A stretch of DNA of 64,000 nucleotides from Escherichia phage MN04, in sequence record MT129654.1. The stretch is one strand, 5' to 3'. Position numbers and translations under genes: made by a program. Under the pieces are notes generated by a model, which made no database searches, had not been told where the DNA came from, and worked only from the letters and a program-made list of their open reading frames with translations. Below are positions 2,927-62,430 of the stretch, in pieces (the first letter of the stretch is position 1; each line of letters begins with the position of its first letter).

Positions 2927-4207
2927 TTATGCCTCGTAAATAATCGGAGGAAGTTTAACACCAAGCAGATAAGACATGTTACTCTGACCTGCCATTAAAT
3001 CCATATTAGTTGCGTCTATAACACGAGCTTCTTTATCATCTTTAGCAACGGTATATGGGTTTGCTGAAAGTGCATAACGAACCATCAGAGAAATAGCCGG
3101 TTGTAAACTATCAGGGTCTACAATAACTTTATACGCACCAACATGTTCTTGGTCGTCTAAATCCAGACCTTCGGTATACGGAGCATAGAAAATAGAACCA
3201 ACTACTTCATTACCGCCGTAATCTTCTTTAACGCCTACGATAACATAATCTAAAGGACTATTAACATCACAGAATACAGGCAATCCATTAATCAAATAAC
3301 CGTAAGCAGTTTCTGGGAGCCAAGCTTCATCTTCTGGTTTATGTTTCAACCAACCTGAACCAGCGAGCATAGCAGCAGCACGACTAGATGCGACAACAAA
3401 CGTACCTGAATAAGAAGTGGTTTTCTGAATTTCAGAATTCATCTCACAAACCATTTCATATAATTTACGTGCACTTTCTGGGGCGGAATTATAGGACAAA
3501 TCAATAATACCATTATCAGATACACCAGTTACTTTGTAACGTTTAGATACGGTAATCAAGGATTGTAGTACGTCTTTATTGATTTCATCAGCCATTACAG
3601 TGGCTAAAAGGTCTTCTAAGAACGCAGGGGCGTCGAAGCCATTGGATTCCATGTCTTGGGCTAGTTCTACAGTCAAAGCGGTTTTAAGTTTACGAGACTT
3701 AACAGGTGCGTTCCATTTATTAACCTGGAATACTGCATTACTAATTTCAACATCACCTGCTTCGAATTTCTCTGTGTGAGCCGCATCAGGAACCAGACGA
3801 CATGTTAATGACACCAAACCTTCTTGAAGGGCCTCAGCCAATTCTGTAGCGCTAGTGGATGCGAGTGGGCTTGCTTGAAGAGCCTTATAAACTATGTTCT
3901 GATACTTGAAATATTCACCCTTGGCAATAGCCTGGGCCTTATCTGTGAGTTCTGGGATAGTTTCACGGTCTTTAGAACCAACTTCACCGCCATAAACGGC
4001 ACCAGTTTGGAAGCTAAATTCATTATCAGGAGTAAGATATTTGACACCATACAATGCAGCAATAGGCTGGCTAGTACGTTGTTCAGCAATAATATCACGG
4101 TAAATCAATTTGGTTGTAGCACGGGTCAAAGCAACAAGATTAGGGCGACCCAATGAGTTGCTAGAAGTAGTTGTTGACTCGCGCAGTAATTCGTTAATCT
4201 TTGCCAT
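2927..4207 (-). CDS. gp24: Head vertex protein gp24
   Basis: 426 aa; MAKINELLRESTTT N-terminus and overall match to T4 gp24; adjacent to gp23. Confidence 0.85.
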   Translation of the reverse strand: MAKINELLRESTTTSSNSLGRPNLVALTRATTKLIYRDIIAEQRTSQPIAALYGVKYLTPDNEFSFQTGAVYGGEVGSKDRETIPELTDKAQAIAKGEYFKYQNIVYKALQASPLASTSATELAEALQEGLVSLTCRLVPDAAHTEKFEAGDVEISNAVFQVNKWNAPVKSRKLKTALTVELAQDMESNGFDAPAFLEDLLATVMADEINKDVLQSLITVSKRYKVTGVSDNGIIDLSYNSAPESARKLYEMVCEMNSEIQKTTSYSGTFVVASSRAAAMLAGSGWLKHKPEDEAWLPETAYGYLINGLPVFCDVNSPLDYVIVGVKEDYGGNEVVGSIFYAPYTEGLDLDDQEHVGAYKVIVDPDSLQPAISLMVRYALSANPYTVAKDDKEARVIDATNMDLMAGQSNMSYLLGVKLPPIIYEA

Positions 4208-8389: not shown

Positions 8390-9963
8390 TAGAAATCCTC
8401 TTCTTCTTCATCTGGGTTTTGGAAACGAGCCTCTTTAGACTCTTCTTCAATTTGCTTAGCTTCTTGATTAATTTCTTCGTCAGTCATCTGAAGGAAATCT
8501 TTCATAGCCGTTTGATGTGAAATATACTTACCAATAAATGGTTCAGCCATCGTTAGCATATTGATTCTGCGTTCCATGATTTCCGCATCTTTCATTTCAC
8601 TGAAATAGCTATCACGGTTGAACGTAACTTTAATATTATTTATTTCTCTTTCCCACTCATCTTCTGTAATAATCTTTTTAAGAATGAGGTTTGTTTTTAA
8701 TGGGTCTAAGAAAATTTCTTCAAATTTATTTTGGAGCTGTCGAATCCATTTAGCAAATTTCAACTCATCGCGGGTGATTGCTGTACCAGCATCAAACATA
8801 ACACCGGAATTAGATTCACTAGGGATACGTGACTCTGGGATACGCAGCGCACGATAAAGTGCTGTGCGGAAATAAAGAACGTCATCCATATCACTCATAC
8901 CTGTGGCACCAGGCATGGTATCAACTTCTGTTACCGCTTTACCGTCTCGACGTTGCAACCAATAGTCTTCGGTCATTGACATATTATGTTGCTGGTTTTT
9001 AATTTTACCGGTCGAAGCATCATATACCACACGGTTTTTCATCGTGTTCATGATATGTTGCATTTGTGCTGCAGCCTTACGTGAAGGCATATTACCTGTA
9101 TCGATATAAAACACACGACGGTCGGGAGCACGTGTAATACGGTAGATGACCATTGCGTCTTCCATCAATTTAAGCTGGTTTGCAGGCTTAATAGCACGTT
9201 GCAAATAGCCAATGATGTTTTTACCACAACAATCTAATAATCCAGAATGTGCATAAACTACAGCAGCACGAGGAATTTTAACTTTAGTCCCAGCTGAATA
9301 AATGCGTCCGTCAGCACAATAACTTTCATGACCAGTATCGTAAACGAAAAACTCGCGGTACCCATCTACAATTTTAACACCATCTTCCATACGTGTAACA
9401 ATTTCACGAATATATTGGACTTGGCGCGGGTCTAAGCGTCGAAGCTCTTGTACGCCATCTTTCATTTTTTTAGGGTTTATAATTTTATGAAAGAATATTC
9501 TTGAGTCTACATACCAACGTTGGAAATGGTCGGTGCCTTTACGTTGGAAATTTAAAAGATTCAAAACTTCACTAAATTCAGCCAAAATTTTATCTTTAAT
9601 TGATTGACTGAAATCTGTCCCGTCTAAATTTAATGCAACTACTTCTTTATCATCCTCGTAGACAATAGCGTCAGACACAATTTCTTGAACTGCGTTATCG
9701 ACTTCATAGTTGTTCATCAAATTACGGTAGGTATCAATGAGTTCCCTGGTGTTTTTAACTTCAGGCTCATTACTACCAAACATTTGTTGCATAAGAGCGT
9801 TATAAGGAATATTTTGCTCTTGGGTTTCAATTTCGCGAGCGCCATCATCAAGCTTAGGTGCAGTGACAGACTCTAAATTGTTATTAATTTGTTGTTTATA
9901 TTCTTTTTCGTCTTCATTAGCCCATGGCTTAAGAAAACTTAATATTGTATTAAAGTTTGCCAT
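8389..9963 (-). CDS. gp20: Portal vertex protein gp20
   Basis: 524 aa, same length as T4 gp20; synteny. Confidence 0.9.
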
Positions 9964-10011
9964 TAGAGTCTCCGATGAATGGGATAAGGAGCCGAAGCTC
10001 CTTTATAATTC

Positions 10012-10019
10012 TATTTATA
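10012..10019 (-). promoter_or_regulatory. Late promoter TATAAATA for gp20
   Basis: TATAAATA on minus strand just after gp19 stop; GGAGC-CGAA-GCTCC hairpin in 5' leader. Confidence 0.55.
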
Positions 10020-10020
10020 C

Positions 10021-10524
10021 TCATTCCCACCAATCGATAGCGAACGTAGATTCGAAAGTTTCTACCTCGTTGTTTGAATCCCAATCCATCTGGACTTCAC
10101 CAACGTTAGTAGGCCATAAGCCATAAATTGTAACTTCTTTAGTCACAGTCTTACCGTCACGATGGAACTGACGAACAACTGCTTGTTTCTTATATTCTGC
10201 AGGTGCAGCACCTGTAATTTCATTGGTCATACCATGGCAGAGGTTTTGCCAATCAACAATTGCCTGACGGGTGTCATGGGCGTCATCGTTATAAATGGTA
10301 ATGGTCCAATCATCAAATGTACGGTCACCAGCTACGTTAATTTTACGGTTCATGTAGCCAACCGGTACTTTTTCTACAATGCCTGCCGGCATAGGTGCTG
10401 CTTTACATTTAAAGCTAAAGTTTTTACCAAGAAATGGAATTTCCACTTCGAAAAGGTTAGGGCGTGCAAAGTCACCTGACTCAAACGCACGAGTGATATC
10501 TGTCAACTCCATGGGATGCCTCAT
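10021..10524 (-). CDS. gp19: Tail tube protein gp19
   Basis: 167 aa; T4 synteny between 18 and 20. Confidence 0.85.
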   Translation of the reverse strand: MRHPMELTDITRAFESGDFARPNLFEVEIPFLGKNFSFKCKAAPMPAGIVEKVPVGYMNRKINVAGDRTFDDWTITIYNDDAHDTRQAIVDWQNLCHGMTNEITGAAPAEYKKQAVVRQFHRDGKTVTKEVTIYGLWPTNVGEVQMDWDSNNEVETFESTFAIDWWE

Positions 10525-10564
10525 AAGTCAGTTCCTGGCCACACCAGGAACGTTCTGATTAATT

Positions 10565-10572
10565 TATTTATA
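10565..10572 (-). promoter_or_regulatory. Late promoter TATAAATA for gp19
   Basis: TATAAATA on minus strand about 40 nt upstream of gp19 ATG; leader hairpin 10531-10551 overlaps RBS. Confidence 0.55.
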
Positions 10573-10634
10573 ACAGTTGATAAATCATATTCCTGATAGT
10601 TAATCAATCCCAGGCGCAATTCTACGTGATGTAC

Positions 10635-10673
10635 GCTGTAACCAAACACATGGTATAATGGTTTTAGGTTCTT
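10635..10673 (+). promoter_or_regulatory. MotA-box middle-promoter-like element oriented antisense to gene 18
   Basis: GCTGTA box, 13-bp spacer, TATAAT 10654-10659, then GGTTTTAGGTTCTT matching the 14-mer after two other middle promoters. Confidence 0.4.
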
Positions 10674-10697
10674 TATATTACAGCCTGGGATAATAGA

Positions 10698-12680
10698 TTA
10701 TACTAAAGGTCCAATCAATTCATCAAAATCAGCACCAGTGCTCGTTGCAACGAAGTTCAACGTGATGTAATTTATCGATCTCGCAGGTTTGATGTATATA
10801 TTAGCAATAAACTCATTACGGTCGATAACCGCAGGGGTGTTCACTGTAGTATCACAAACCACACGTCCTTCATAAATCCCACCAAGTGCCTTAATACCGT
10901 CTAAGTACTGAGAAACTTCCATACGGAAGCTTGAACGAGTGAAGTTATCGTTCAATTCAAACAGTTTATATTTAGAGGCATCACCGATATTTTTCTTAAG
11001 CATGTTGAACAGACGGCGAACGTTAATGTGGTCCATCGGAGATGGAACTTTAGTTGCAGTCTTATCACCAAACAATACGAAACCATCACCGCCAGCAAAA
11101 CCAACAACCGGGTTAATAGCTTCCTGGTACATGCGGTCACGTTGTGCTTGACGTGGTTCAATTGCCAATTTCAGAACGTTAAGAATCTGACCACGGTTAT
11201 AACCGGCAGGAGACATCCAAGGCTGAGACACATCATCAGTACGTGCACACAAACCAGCCAAATCAGCAGCCAGTGGTACCCAACGGTTTACGTCGTTATA
11301 TTTGTCGTATTGATATTTATAGTTACCATCAATAGCGGCATAAGTGGTACTGATGTTCATGTTGTTGGCATCGAAAGTACCGGCACCGGTACGCCAGTCG
11401 ATAAGGTTATCTACTGCACGAGTCAGTGGAACGTTAACCAACAGACCTTTAGGAGGAGAAATAAATGCTAAGCAATCCTGACGTTCATCAGCAATACTCA
11501 CAACGTGTTTCTGAACAGTAGAAGCCACTTCATCGCCTTCACCAGCAACAGCACCAGCAATAAGCAGGTTAATATGGAGTGCTTCACGGTCGGCAAACAA
11601 ATCCCAACCCTGCATCAAATCGCCTGCAGTAACTTTATCGTTGGCGGAAATACCACCAGACAGATTAATGATACCACTAAATCCTTTCGGCCAGTTTAAC
11701 GAGGTAGCATAGATGTAATTAGAAGTACCTTTAGCGAAATAATCGTCAAGATAAATGTTATTACCGTAAACGTCTTTTTCACCTTCTTTGGTGGAAAGTA
11801 CGACTGATTCTACTATAGCGCCATCGCGACGAACGATAATTGCGTATTGGTCATCTGTTTGTGGGCCGTAATTAAATACTGCCTTGGCAATAGAAGCACG
11901 GGTACCGCCACCAGGATAAACATCCAACATTTTAGAAGAACCGGCTTCGTAAGCTGCTTTAGAAACGATTTCTACTTCCAGAGTAGAACCAATTTCACCA
12001 GGATAAAGGGCCACTACGCCTGGCATAGCAAATTTCTTAAGGGCCGCTTGGAATTCAAGAGAAGTAATAGCTTCTTCACTATTCTCGGCTTCTGTCAAAA
12101 GAATACCGGAATCCGTAACAATTTTACCTACGGTAATAGTACCAGAAACACCCGAAGAGGCGGAAGTAACTTCAGCAGTCCAAGCCGGGCCTAGGGTAGG
12201 ATACTGGTTTAAAGAACGTGCGTAAGCAATAATTTTTGCTGACGGAATAAACACAGAAAGAATTTTACCGTCTGTATCTACAGAAGTCACACGACCTTCA
12301 GATTCGACTACAGTTTGGTTATATTTAATATTAATTTTATCGCCTACAGCATAGTTGGAACCAGCCGTAGTAATAGTGGTTTCAATATTACCAGCGATAG
12401 GAGATGCGTTTTTAGCAAATTCGCGACTAACAACACGAACTGTACGAAGGTCATTACCATACTGGAGGAAGTTCATACCAGACATAAAGTAATCTGCTAC
12501 TTCGTTATTAGGACCTCCAAACAAATCAACCAGTTCAACTTCATTGGTAATCTGAGTTACCTGGAAAGCAGGGCCCCACTGGAATTTACCAACCAGCGCT
12601 GCACGACCCGTTGCGTTACGAACGACAGTACTCTGTACGGACGTTTCTTTGAGCTCAATGCCCGGTGATAATAAAGCCAT
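10698..12680 (-). CDS. gp18: Tail sheath protein gp18
   Basis: 660 aa (T4 gp18 is 659); synteny. Confidence 0.9.
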   Translation of the reverse strand: MALLSPGIELKETSVQSTVVRNATGRAALVGKFQWGPAFQVTQITNEVELVDLFGGPNNEVADYFMSGMNFLQYGNDLRTVRVVSREFAKNASPIAGNIETTITTAGSNYAVGDKINIKYNQTVVESEGRVTSVDTDGKILSVFIPSAKIIAYARSLNQYPTLGPAWTAEVTSASSGVSGTITVGKIVTDSGILLTEAENSEEAITSLEFQAALKKFAMPGVVALYPGEIGSTLEVEIVSKAAYEAGSSKMLDVYPGGGTRASIAKAVFNYGPQTDDQYAIIVRRDGAIVESVVLSTKEGEKDVYGNNIYLDDYFAKGTSNYIYATSLNWPKGFSGIINLSGGISANDKVTAGDLMQGWDLFADREALHINLLIAGAVAGEGDEVASTVQKHVVSIADERQDCLAFISPPKGLLVNVPLTRAVDNLIDWRTGAGTFDANNMNISTTYAAIDGNYKYQYDKYNDVNRWVPLAADLAGLCARTDDVSQPWMSPAGYNRGQILNVLKLAIEPRQAQRDRMYQEAINPVVGFAGGDGFVLFGDKTATKVPSPMDHINVRRLFNMLKKNIGDASKYKLFELNDNFTRSSFRMEVSQYLDGIKALGGIYEGRVVCDTTVNTPAVIDRNEFIANIYIKPARSINYITLNFVATSTGADFDELIGPLV

Positions 12681-28334: not shown

Positions 28335-30293
28335 TTATATTGTAATTGGTTCCAACTCTATAGTTGTGTACTGAGGACGAAGGTCATCTTCAAATACGAT
28401 TAAAGAACCGTCTTTGGTAAAGATGTTGTCTTGGTCTGGTCCTGCATAAAGTTCAATAGACTGGACTTCAAAACGGTCGGAAGTAAGGCCTATTGCGGCG
28501 ATATCCCAGAAAATAAAGTCTGAGTAATAATCAATTTCGCCAATAACATAGTAGACCGATTGGTCTGCAGGAGCTGCCATTTTATCGAAGTCATCTCCGG
28601 TATAAGGTTGGATGTATTGGTTTTCAATTACATCACCTGGACGGAAAGGACCTATAACCATTTTACCATCGCCTCGTTCGTCTTTATCTGTGGCAACAAT
28701 ACGTACGTTATAAGATTTAATATCATCCGATACGTTTGTTGGGACGAACTCAAATTCACTAGAAGTTACAGAACGGTTGGTGTATTGATTATAGTATTTA
28801 ATACCCGCTTCAGGTGTTTTGAAGAAGTTTAATACCTCGCGAACCATTGTTACCGTAGCCGAAGAGCCAAGGATACTGTGGTCTGCGTTATCAATATAAG
28901 TCAGCATTTTAGACTTGGCAAATCCATGGTTGAATATTTCAACTTCGTTAATATAATAACGGTCTATTTGGGAAAGGATTTGGGCCGTTAGCCATTGTTC
29001 GGATTCCTGTAATTTGTTCAGTGCATATGAAACCTTAATTTTATGCTTTAAGAACAAATAGTCTGGAGAAATAACCGAAGGAGTAATAGGCGCCAAGTTA
29101 AATTCTGAAAGATAATTTTGGATATCTTCGCGTTGAACCGCTGTCAAATACAATCCTGATTTAGGTTTAATAGTAACAAAGGCGTAACCTGGTTTATTTG
29201 GGTCTGTAAATGTTTGTACTGCTTGTACAATAGAACCAAATCGTTCTGAAACGAATGTATCATAATCTGTACCGGTTACGGCACGCATCTGGGCTTCGCG
29301 TTTAACTACAGCCAGTTCACGAATACGTTCGATATCTTCAGGGTCACCGCCGCCATCAGCACCTACATAATCCGGGTTCCCATCATAGTTTTCTGTAATT
29401 TTTTCAACTGTAATATATGCCAAAGAATCCGCATAACTAAAGTCCACTGCGCCGTTAGCAACTTCACCATCGGTACGAAGATATTCTATAACAATGGTAG
29501 CATCTTTAACAGGTTTTAAACCACCAATATAGTTAGCTTCTAATACACCGCCCGCAACTGATTTTTCGGCAACGCCTTCACCAAAGAAGAATTCAGTATT
29601 ACCATCTACGGTTTCACGCATATAGTAAATGGTTGATGTACTACCAGCATGAACCATGGATTTATTAGTCCAGTTAGTCCATTCTGCACCATCGACATAA
29701 AGTTTAACTTCTTGTCTATCAATATCCGGGTCACGAATAAGAATAGGGGTTTTAGGGTCATACTTAAGTTCAGTACGAATAATACGACCTTGTGCTAAAG
29801 ATACAATAGGGAGATATTGGTTATTAACATCACGTACGGCAATAACGTTTTCCGTGGTAACAAAAGCATACGGGTCTGCCGAAGTATCACGAGCATAGGC
29901 CAAGAATTTAGTACCACGTGGGATACGAATATTCTTTTCATTCAGGGCCTGAGTACAGGTCAACATAATACTTGTTTTTGCCGCGGATTTGGAACTAGGA
30001 AGGTATCCGTTATCTTGTGCAGCCTGGACAACCGAAGAACGAAGGTTTGCCGTTCCTATAAAAGACTCGTATAAAGCTGTGTTAGCAAATTGCTGTATAT
30101 AAAGAGTATTATAAGCAAGCATATCAATAAGGATATTCATTCGAGAACCAACGAAATCATAATCCTTAAATTCTTCCTGGCTGGAAAGCCAATCGATAAT
30201 ATTCTTTTTAATTTCTTCAAACGTAGCTCCCACAAATACTTTTGGGATAGCGTTAACGGTTCTTGTTAATTGGTAATTCGTAGGAGTAGCCAT
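28335..30293 (-). CDS. gp6: Baseplate wedge protein gp6
   Basis: 652 aa (T4 660); synteny. Confidence 0.75.
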   Translation of the reverse strand: MATPTNYQLTRTVNAIPKVFVGATFEEIKKNIIDWLSSQEEFKDYDFVGSRMNILIDMLAYNTLYIQQFANTALYESFIGTANLRSSVVQAAQDNGYLPSSKSAAKTSIMLTCTQALNEKNIRIPRGTKFLAYARDTSADPYAFVTTENVIAVRDVNNQYLPIVSLAQGRIIRTELKYDPKTPILIRDPDIDRQEVKLYVDGAEWTNWTNKSMVHAGSTSTIYYMRETVDGNTEFFFGEGVAEKSVAGGVLEANYIGGLKPVKDATIVIEYLRTDGEVANGAVDFSYADSLAYITVEKITENYDGNPDYVGADGGGDPEDIERIRELAVVKREAQMRAVTGTDYDTFVSERFGSIVQAVQTFTDPNKPGYAFVTIKPKSGLYLTAVQREDIQNYLSEFNLAPITPSVISPDYLFLKHKIKVSYALNKLQESEQWLTAQILSQIDRYYINEVEIFNHGFAKSKMLTYIDNADHSILGSSATVTMVREVLNFFKTPEAGIKYYNQYTNRSVTSSEFEFVPTNVSDDIKSYNVRIVATDKDERGDGKMVIGPFRPGDVIENQYIQPYTGDDFDKMAAPADQSVYYVIGEIDYYSDFIFWDIAAIGLTSDRFEVQSIELYAGPDQDNIFTKDGSLIVFEDDLRPQYTTIELEPITI

Positions 30294-33967: not shown

Positions 33968-34791
33968 GTATATTTTCCTACATCAATGAGGCTACTGAAA
34001 CCACAAAAGGTTCTAAGCCTACTCGTTCAGAACAACAATGGATAACTTTAGGCGTTGAATATGCCAAAGCTAAGGCCAAAGGTGTCTCGGCTAAGAAATT
34101 CGCTGAAGATAAAGGCATCAAGTATTCTAGCTTTACATCTGCGATGTCTCGATACTCGAGTCGAATTAAAACTGCTGTACAGGTTGAAAAGCTTCAGAAT
34201 AAACCTGGCAATAAATTGACCAAAGCCGAACGTCAATTAATTTTGGTGAATAGTTTTAGAAAGAGTATTCGTGATAAGATTGCTAACGAAGGCGCTGCTG
34301 TAAACAATAAATCAGCTAAATGGTTTACAGAAACATTAAAGAAAGGAATTCGTGGACACCAGGTATCTAAACCATCTCCTGGTAAGCTTTATGCTTATAT
34401 CTATGATGCTAAACACAAGGACACATTACCCTACTGGGACAAATATCCTTTAATCATTTATCTTGGGCTTGGTAAGCATAATCTGATGTACGGGTTGAAC
34501 TTACACTATATTCCGCCTAAAGCACGCCAGCAATTTCTAGAAGAATTGCTGAAGCAATACGCGAGTACGCCTACCATTACGAACTCGACTAAATTAAAAA
34601 TCGATTGGAGTAAGGTAAAAGGATTCGCTGGCGCTGACGTGATGATTAAGGCTTATATCCCTGGAAATATCAAGGGTCCTTTAGTAGAGATAAAACCTTC
34701 TGATTGGGCTAATGTAGTCATGCTTCCGCTTCAGCAATTTGTATCTAAAGGTAAGCGTTACTCAGCTCAGAAAGTATGGAAGAACGCATAA
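33955..34791 (+). CDS. gp2: DNA end protector protein gp2
   Basis: 278 aa (T4 274); synteny. Confidence 0.7.
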
Positions 34792-34876
34792 TAATCTATT
34801 ATCCCAGCCAGTTATTGAATGGAACAGACCTAGGACCATTATACACTGGCTAGGACTTAAGCAATATAGGAATCCT

Positions 34877-62390: not shown

Positions 62391-62392
62391 AC

Positions 62393-62430
62393 GCTTTATA
62401 CCAAGGATGGTATAATGGTTCTAGGTTCTT
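62393..62430 (+). promoter_or_regulatory. MotA-dependent middle promoter candidate
   Basis: GCTTTA box, 12-bp spacer, TATAAT 62411-16, conserved GGTTCTAGGTTCTT downstream. Confidence 0.5.

Follow-up and report, generated by a model that had tools for sequence, protein, structure and literature searches.

A candidate middle promoter opposing the late genes 18 and 19 of a JS98-like phage resembles uvsY promoters in its start region

During T4 infection, prereplicative RNA complementary to late messages is made, and this RNA is known as "anti-late RNA" from hybridisation studies of the 1970s. The middle promoters of T4 combine an excellent sigma-70 -10 element (TAtaaT) with a MotA box, which has the consensus (a/t)(a/t)(a/t)TGCTTtA, tolerates single changes, is centred at -30 and lies 12 ± 1 bp from the -10 element (PMC2988021). 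Two of these promoters belong to replication origins. The origin oriF consists of the uvsY promoter and a downstream unwinding element, while oriG corresponds to P34i, the primer RNA of which lies opposite the late gene 34 (PMC3016281). The mapped starts of PuvsY and P34i are at 115371 and 153011, respectively (PMC2988021). Another kind of composite, the PeSL, joins an early promoter to a stem-loop in intergenic spacers, at points of insertion or deletion (PMC4122927).

Here, we describe a promoter-like element, hereafter called site 3, at 10634-10673 on the plus strand of a 64-kb stretch of DNA ("the window" is this whole stretch). How does it compare with the described systems? Like T4 P34i/oriG, site 3 is of the MotA type, with the -10 sequences TGTATAAT/TGGTATAAT, a GGTYYY discriminator and an A at +1, and it faces a late gene with a predicted non-coding RNA as its product. 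In contrast to site 3, which is located in a spacer and enclosed by a hairpin, P34i lies inside the coding sequence of gene 34, and its +2 to +8 residues, GAGAGTT, do not match those of site 3. Moreover, the origin activity of P34i is proven, whereas that of site 3 is hypothetical. Site 3 also has a post -10 module in common with T4 PuvsY/oriF and with the uvsY promoters of other T4-like genera, although PuvsY additionally drives the uvsY mRNA, while no gene follows site 3. Finally, the predicted product of site 3 resembles the T4 anti-late RNA in being prereplicative and complementary to late messages, but the latter is an RNA class that is not known to be tied to particular promoters.

Three promoter-like sites in the window

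Over positions 9800-11500, the window shares 98.8% identity with Escherichia phage JS98 (Dhakavirus, Straboviridae) and 99.0% with the unannotated record of phage Ec2-ASingh. The entire window corresponds to the reverse complement of about 110.4-46.4 kb of the 170-kb JS98 genome, and its plus strand therefore runs in the direction of the T4 early and middle genes. The motA and asiA genes are both annotated in JS98, outside the window. According to the annotation transferred from JS98, gene 19 (tail tube) occupies 10021-10512 and gene 18 (tail sheath) occupies 10698-12680, both on the minus strand, and the spacer between them is 185 bp long. This confirms the location given in an earlier, sequence-only reading, which had placed site 3 between gp18 and gp19, on the plus strand amid minus-strand genes. 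The site is unannotated in JS98, the record of which holds CDS and tRNA features only.

In the late-mRNA sense, the gene 18 stop codon is followed by a long hairpin, the late promoter of gene 19 (10572-10565), a small hairpin (10551-10531) and gene 19. The late promoter has the consensus TATAAATA at 10565-10572 on the minus strand, as read from the sequence, and is also present in relatives. The small hairpin at 10531-10551, which a repeat search revealed downstream of this late promoter and ahead of the gene 19 start codon, is a perfect 8-bp one (GTTCCTGG/CCAGGAAC). Several other lineages have comparable small hairpins in this position.

Site 3 starts with the MotA-box-like sequence CGCTGTA (tacCGCTGTA; 10634-10640), which is centred near -30 and agrees with the core TGCTTTA at five of the seven positions, while differing at the other two. 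The distance from this box to the -10 element is 13 bp, within the 12 ± 1 bp range of T4 middle promoters. The -10 element, TATAAT (10654-10659), follows TGG and thereby completes a perfect extended -10, TGGTATAAT (10651-10659). The subsequent block, GGTTTT-A-GGTTCTT (10660-10673), is composed of a discriminator (10660-10665), the predicted start A10666 and the residues from +2 to +8. The whole element can be written as CGCTGTA-13-TGGTATAAT-GGTTTTAGGTTCTT.

Two further plus-strand sites share this arrangement. Site 1 (498-537), located about 80 nt upstream of rnlB, reads TGCTTTA-13-TGTTATAAT-GGGTCT-A(530)-GGTCCTT, with the post -10 sequence GGGTCTAGGTCCTT. Site 2 (62392-62430), upstream of an nrdC.6 homologue, reads CGCTTTA-12-TGGTATAAT-GGTTCT-A(62423)-GGTTCTT, with the post -10 sequence GGTTCTAGGTTCTT. 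The sequences at 498-537, 10634-10673 and 62392-62430 thus agree with the common layout that had been proposed for them, namely a MotA-box-like element, a 12-13 bp spacer, TATAAT and the block, and in each of them TGnTATAAT precedes the block GGNTNTAGGTNCTT. From their sequence and position, sites 1 and 2 are putative middle promoters. While all three members of the proposed family read as described, a fourth, weaker member had been overlooked. This member, TTGCTTA-14-TGTATAAT-GGTCCT-A-GGTCTGTTCC (34824-34863, minus strand), lies in the gene 2/gene 3 spacer, is directed against late genes and is orthologous to a T4 element.

The similarity among the three sites exceeds the background. The 20-mer pattern TATAATGGNTNTAGGTNCTT has three exact matches in the window, in addition to two with one to three mismatches, while shuffled sequence gives a mean of 0.27 matches at up to three mismatches. 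We also built a position weight matrix (PWM) that covers 13 positions after the -10 element. Its training set consisted of 15 uvsY and srd-antisense promoters and excluded Dhakavirus. Among the 2,380 -10-like hexamers of JS98, which score -12.4 bits on average (sd 6.9), sites 2, 1 and 3 rank first, with 18.2, 18.1 and 17.1 bits, respectively. The next-best match in the window scores 12.6 bits, and in 100 simulated 64-kb sequences the maximum was 14.3, with none reaching 15 bits. The complete JS98 genome contains four copies of the exact block. Three of them are oriented like early/middle genes and are preceded by TATAAT and a MotA box. The remaining copy (28646-28665 of the window, minus strand; 12.6 bits) lies inside the gene 6 coding sequence, after TAAAAT and without a MotA box, and is probably a chance match.

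At the level of sequence, the interpretation of site 3 as a middle promoter is supported by its extended -10, by the MotA-like box at 13 bp, by the early/middle orientation and by the presence of MotA and AsiA in JS98. We consider it likely that site 3 functions as a MotA/AsiA middle promoter and gives a non-coding anti-late RNA, where we infer the transcription, the MotA dependence, the exact start and the role of the RNA. T4 P34i/oriG provides a precedent for a non-coding antisense transcript of the middle class within a late gene. The two mismatches in the box of site 3 count against this interpretation. Within the late-gene clusters of JS98, site 3 is the best antisense candidate of the MotA type, in a scan that overlooked the P34i orthologue.

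We propose the following course of events. After remodelling of the sigma-70 RNA polymerase by AsiA and its activation by MotA, the enzyme would use site 3 and initiate at A10666 of the plus strand, in opposition to the surrounding late genes. The choice of A10666 as the predicted start is based on the homology to the mapped starts of T4 PuvsY and P34i. The perfect extended -10 might also permit some initiation independent of MotA. As A10666 is 32 nt short of the gene 18 stop codon in the antisense direction, the first 32 nt of the predicted RNA would be intergenic, and from +33 on the RNA would be complementary to the 3' end of the gene 18 message. Its 3' end would probably be set by Rho or by collision; within 2 kb, there is no convincing intrinsic terminator for the antisense RNA.

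What would the product be? No ORF of at least 30 aa starts downstream of 10666, and inspection by eye finds only frames of 1-10 codons. An antisense or small RNA, as the sequence-only reading had suggested for this copy, is therefore the only possible product, and the output of site 3 is probably a non-coding RNA and not a protein. Rfam covariance models gave no match over 10000-11500 up to E = 1; a known RNA is thus rejected as the product, and so is a small ORF. The predicted transcript folds like its shuffles (z = -0.6), which speaks against a structured small RNA. Our literature search on T4-like antisense transcripts, global start-site maps, "anti-late RNA" and Dhakavirus transcripts found nothing usable.

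Conservation of the promoter and its start-region module

We compared 79 gp19 loci of T4-like phages from IMG/VR. In nine Dhakavirus sequences, the MotA-like box, the TGn and the TATAAT are invariant, while the spacer and the flanks vary. The TGn-TATAAT is also kept in Gaprivervirus TH41. Altogether, three lineages have a promoter that points away from gene 19, about 120-135 nt from the gene 19 start, or further off where a mobile ORF intervenes. It reads CGCTGTA-13-TATAAT-ggtttt-A-ggttc in Dhakavirus and TGCTTTT-13-TATAAT-ggttct-A-cgg in Gaprivervirus, where the box is closer to the consensus than that of site 3. In a Marfavirus-like lineage of Klebsiella phages, it reads TGCTAAA-13-TATAAT-gacttc-A-ggtc, and some sequences do not have the TGn. 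Outside the promoter elements, which are the only conserved island, the spacer is unalignable between the three lineages. A lack of conservation in relatives had been named as a refutation of site 3. Instead, the promoter has been kept in Dhakavirus, Gaprivervirus and the Marfavirus-like lineage while the surrounding spacer diverged. On the other hand, it is absent from T4, Tegunavirus, Mosigvirus, Karamvirus, Krischvirus, Bragavirus and the others sampled, which mostly have a short G+C-rich hairpin after gene 18. This absence counts against the middle-promoter interpretation, and the element is therefore dispensable for the T4-like life cycle.

What does the post -10 block represent? The sequence-only reading had left it unexplained, and it can now be explained in part, though not in full. 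In T4, the mapped starts of both PuvsY and P34i are an A seven nucleotides after TATAAT. Accordingly, the block consists of the discriminator, the +1 A and the residues from +2 to +8, and it serves as a marker of promoters of the uvsY/oriF type. We compared the uvsY promoters of about ten lineages, and each of them combines a MotA box and TATAAT with G(G/A)nTYY-A-(n)GGTYC. T4 PuvsY itself reads TGGTATAAT-GAATCT-A-AGTCCATCC, and the uvsY promoters of two other lineages, GGTTTT-A-GGTCCTT and GGATTT-A-GGTTCTT, match the previously proposed pattern exactly. We therefore define, in this analysis, a putative subclass of middle promoters with the module TATAAT-G(G/A)nTYY-A-(n)GGTYC, of which the uvsY promoter would be the prototype. 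Site 3 carries this module, as judged by its 17.1 bits with a PWM derived from non-Dhakavirus promoters only.

The block is not a generic feature of middle promoters, since it is absent from 10 of the 11 strong MotA-type promoters of JS98, the eleventh being the rnlB promoter (site 1). It is likewise missing from T4 Pdex.2, Pdda.1, P56/69 and PrnlB. In an IMG/VR scan with the 20-mer, which returned 33 loci, the combination of MotA box, TATAAT and block appeared at other loci of other T4-like phages, two of them directly upstream of uvsY; the roughly one dozen non-T4-like matches equal the chance expectation for 17 fixed bases. In two unrelated 55-kb viral contigs (L030 and L033), the block follows a textbook sigma-70 promoter, TTGACA-17-TGTTATAAT-GGGTTTAGGTTCTT, which may reflect chance or a block that suits host RNA polymerase generally. 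The residues from +2 to +8 tend to be alike within a genome (AAGTCC at three sites in T4, AGGTYC at most sites in Dhakavirus), in a small sample with exceptions in JS98. This likeness hints at gene conversion or a common partner.

Some promoters with this block have no gene to serve. In the T4 srd/modA spacer, at about 11,860-11,905 (plus strand) of AF158101, the sequence AAATGCTTTAA-12-TGGTATAAT-GAATCT-A-AGTCCTTCC is nearly identical to PuvsY after the -10 element. It points against early genes and is kept in Dhakavirus, Gaprivervirus, CHI14 and others. In the T4 gene 2/3 spacer, at about 75,965-76,010 (plus strand) of the same record, we find AATGCTTTA-12-TGGTATAAT-GGGTCT-A-AGTCCCTTCC. The table of 58 mapped T4 middle promoters lists neither of them (PMC2988021). 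The gene 2/3 promoter of the window is not followed by an ORF, and the inverted repeat AGCCAG/CTGGCT encloses it. At both loci, as at site 3, the distance between the predicted start and the stop codon of the convergent gene is 16-32 nt. These orphans, found in T4, JS98, Gaprivervirus, CHI14 and others, thus resemble site 3 in having a consensus or near-consensus MotA box, the block and no ORF, but they differ from it in occupying other loci and in being more widely conserved, including in T4.

Replication origins and other roles for the transcript

Could site 3 be a replication origin that works through an R-loop, like oriG and oriF of T4? In such an origin, the middle transcript would remain annealed to readily melting DNA immediately downstream, be trimmed, and prime leading-strand synthesis into the late cluster. 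We regard this role as possible but doubtful. The architecture is that of oriG, in which a MotA-dependent promoter, antisense in a late region, makes a non-coding primer RNA (PMC3016281). The post -10 block is a conserved signature of the uvsY (oriF) promoters in about ten lineages, and its other carriers are mostly orphans that are unable to serve an mRNA, such as those that T4 and other phages carry in the srd/modA and gene 2/3 spacers. Since the only gene-independent function of PuvsY is the priming of replication, the module shared with PuvsY and the oriG-like architecture together make an origin or primer role plausible. A middle-mode promoter, as found in the minimal R-loop origin, is present here at the level of sequence. 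However, the block also stands before ordinary genes (rnlB, nrdC.6 and a VR5 ORF), T4 P34i fits only its discriminator half, and R-loop formation in T4 is reported to be independent of specific sequence (PMC3016281). Moreover, JS98 already has promoter orthologues of PuvsY and P34i.

The VR5 case concerns a 92-aa ORF, MFPTYSEIV.... In VR5 (L019) and a Gaprivervirus genome (L036), it is preceded by TGCTTTA or CGCTTTA, a 13-nt spacer and TATAAT-GGGTCT-A-GGTCCTT, while in JS98 no exact-block copy precedes its counterpart.

The stability of the DNA duplex was considered as a sign of an unwinding element. The first 50 transcribed bp of site 3 are 68% A+T and belong to the least stable 7% or so of 50-mers, like the unwinding element of T4 oriF: the calculated dG from +1 to +50 is -58.6 kcal/mol (about the 93rd percentile), as compared to -58.0 for T4 oriF. 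However, the P34i orthologue reaches only the 40th percentile, and this measure therefore has no discriminating power and was rejected as a test for unwinding elements.

The P34i/oriG orthologue of JS98 lies inside gene 34 (152,780-152,840, minus strand; at 152812). It reads CATTTGCTTC...AGTGTATAAT-GGTTCC-A-TAAGGTTCCTGATTC, and the T4 counterpart has GGTCCC-A-GAGAGTTCCTGATTC. As the PWM scan found this orthologue at 152812, site 3 is not a substitute for a missing P34i/oriG of JS98.

A broader version of the origin hypothesis concerns the whole group. With equally tentative standing, we suggest that a distinct MotA-dependent subclass with a 13-14 nt module makes structural or primer RNAs rather than messages, that the module specifies the formation of R-loops or primers or else is recognised by a phage factor, and that site 3 is a lineage-specific extra origin in the late cluster. 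Its members may include PuvsY, P34i (marginally), the orphans at srd/modA and gene 2/3 in T4 and relatives, and the gene 18/19 promoters of the Dhaka-, Gapriver- and Marfavirus-like lineages. Two other roles remain as rivals, namely antisense control of the gene 18/19 late message and a polymerase roadblock against read-through.

The hairpin and the mobile ORFs of the spacer

The promoter is enclosed by a long hairpin (10607-10691), with the arms ATCCCAGGC (10607-10615) and GCCTGGGAT (10683-10691), and with GCTGTAA (10635-10641) pairing with TTACAGC (10678-10684). Folding of the 101-nt segment 10600-10700 against shuffles gave z = -3.8 for the minus (late-mRNA) strand and z = -2.8 for the plus strand. 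Long hairpins of differing sequence enclose the promoter in all three carrier lineages (TH41, z = -4.9; BM7, z = -6.0). The hairpin is not an intrinsic terminator after gene 18, as no T run follows it on either strand.

Could the functional element be the RNA hairpin behind gene 18, which would stabilise the 3' end of the late message or serve in its processing, with only an incidental likeness to a promoter on the other strand? In all three lineages, the folding of the hairpin is significant, with stronger values for the late-mRNA strand, and most other sampled T4-like lineages also have a hairpin directly after gene 18. In addition, a G-to-A change in one relative retains a G-U pair on the late-mRNA strand only. 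The hairpin alone could account for part of the conservation, and this counts against the middle-promoter interpretation. However, the three genera have retained the box, the 13-bp spacing, the TATAAT, the G-start discriminator and the +1 A in hairpins that differ in sequence. A mere loop would have no need of these features, and their conservation makes it less probable that the promoter is a by-product of the hairpin. Furthermore, the block ranks at the top with a matrix trained on true promoters of other genera, and elsewhere hairpins of roughly 14-28 nt suffice, as compared to 85 nt here. We therefore consider it unlikely that the hairpin is the sole functional element. In the preferred interpretation, the MotA/AsiA promoter would be situated in the apical part of the hairpin, and one DNA segment would thus be used by both strands.

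The gene 18/19 spacer is also a hotspot of mobile ORFs. These ORFs of 180-227 aa, which are always on the late-gene strand, belong to phrog_5104 (function unknown) and are found in L001 (1405-2090), L002 (1405-2105), L015, L017 (4216-4899) and L070. In UP19, PSD9 and L015, the insertion is on the right side of the promoter element, while L017 and VR26 have it on the left. A Pfam search of the phrog_5104 ORFs in this spacer gave no match, and PHROGs gave phrog_5104 only; an HNH-like motif, "AYQLDH...N...N", was seen by eye only. In one Dhakavirus genome (L017), a 193-aa ORF related to homing endonucleases lies beside gene 19, at the end that does not face gene 18 (3072-3653, minus strand). It matches phrog_314 and phrog_10820, with a weak Pfam match to SegE GIY-YIG.

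The gene 2/3 promoter in the window is a paralogue of site 3. The two have the -10 and block region in common, and an exact 17-mer, CTGGGATAATAGATTAT, which abuts and overlaps the gene 18 stop codon at 10685-10701 (plus strand), is repeated at 34791-34807 (minus strand), where it abuts the gene 2 stop codon. A duplicated cassette is thus an adequate description of these two elements. For sites 1-3, a recently duplicated cassette is ruled out, because their spacers and flanks are unrelated.

The paralogous copy and the mobile ORFs on both sides count against the preferred interpretation, in that they leave room for a cassette that was merely carried along. In that case, site 3 would be a relic or a hitch-hiking regulatory element, spread by recombination or by mobile endonuclease-like genes, and perhaps active but without a role of its own. 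Invading endonucleases can indeed carry in promoters that generate antisense transcripts (PMC2988022). However, the inserted ORFs are on the opposite strand and cannot be expressed from the site 3 promoter, and genomes without an insert have retained the element in three genera. The conservation of the gene 2/3 and srd/modA orphans from T4 to JS98 also argues for selection. We thus see little likelihood in this explanation. Site 3 also resembles the PeSL cassettes, as a composite of a promoter and a stem-loop in spacers that coincide with insertion/deletion points. However, a PeSL has an early (-35/-10) promoter after a terminator on the same strand and occurs in many near-identical copies in hyperplastic regions, whereas site 3, with only two paralogous copies, lies among core late genes and has a MotA box in place of the -35 element, and its promoter is surrounded by the hairpin and points in the opposite direction. 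PeSL membership is rejected.

Site 3 itself belongs to a known kind of promoter, and the part of this analysis that could be new is the observation at the subclass level. One start-region module marks the uvsY/oriF promoter in every lineage examined, several conserved promoters without a gene, and site 3. This shared module is a concrete sequence candidate, which is directly testable in T4. At site 3, a short DNA segment would serve both strands, as a hairpin in the late mRNA and as a probable promoter on the other strand. If it is transcribed, site 3 would be a defined promoter for the poorly understood anti-late RNA of T4-like phages.
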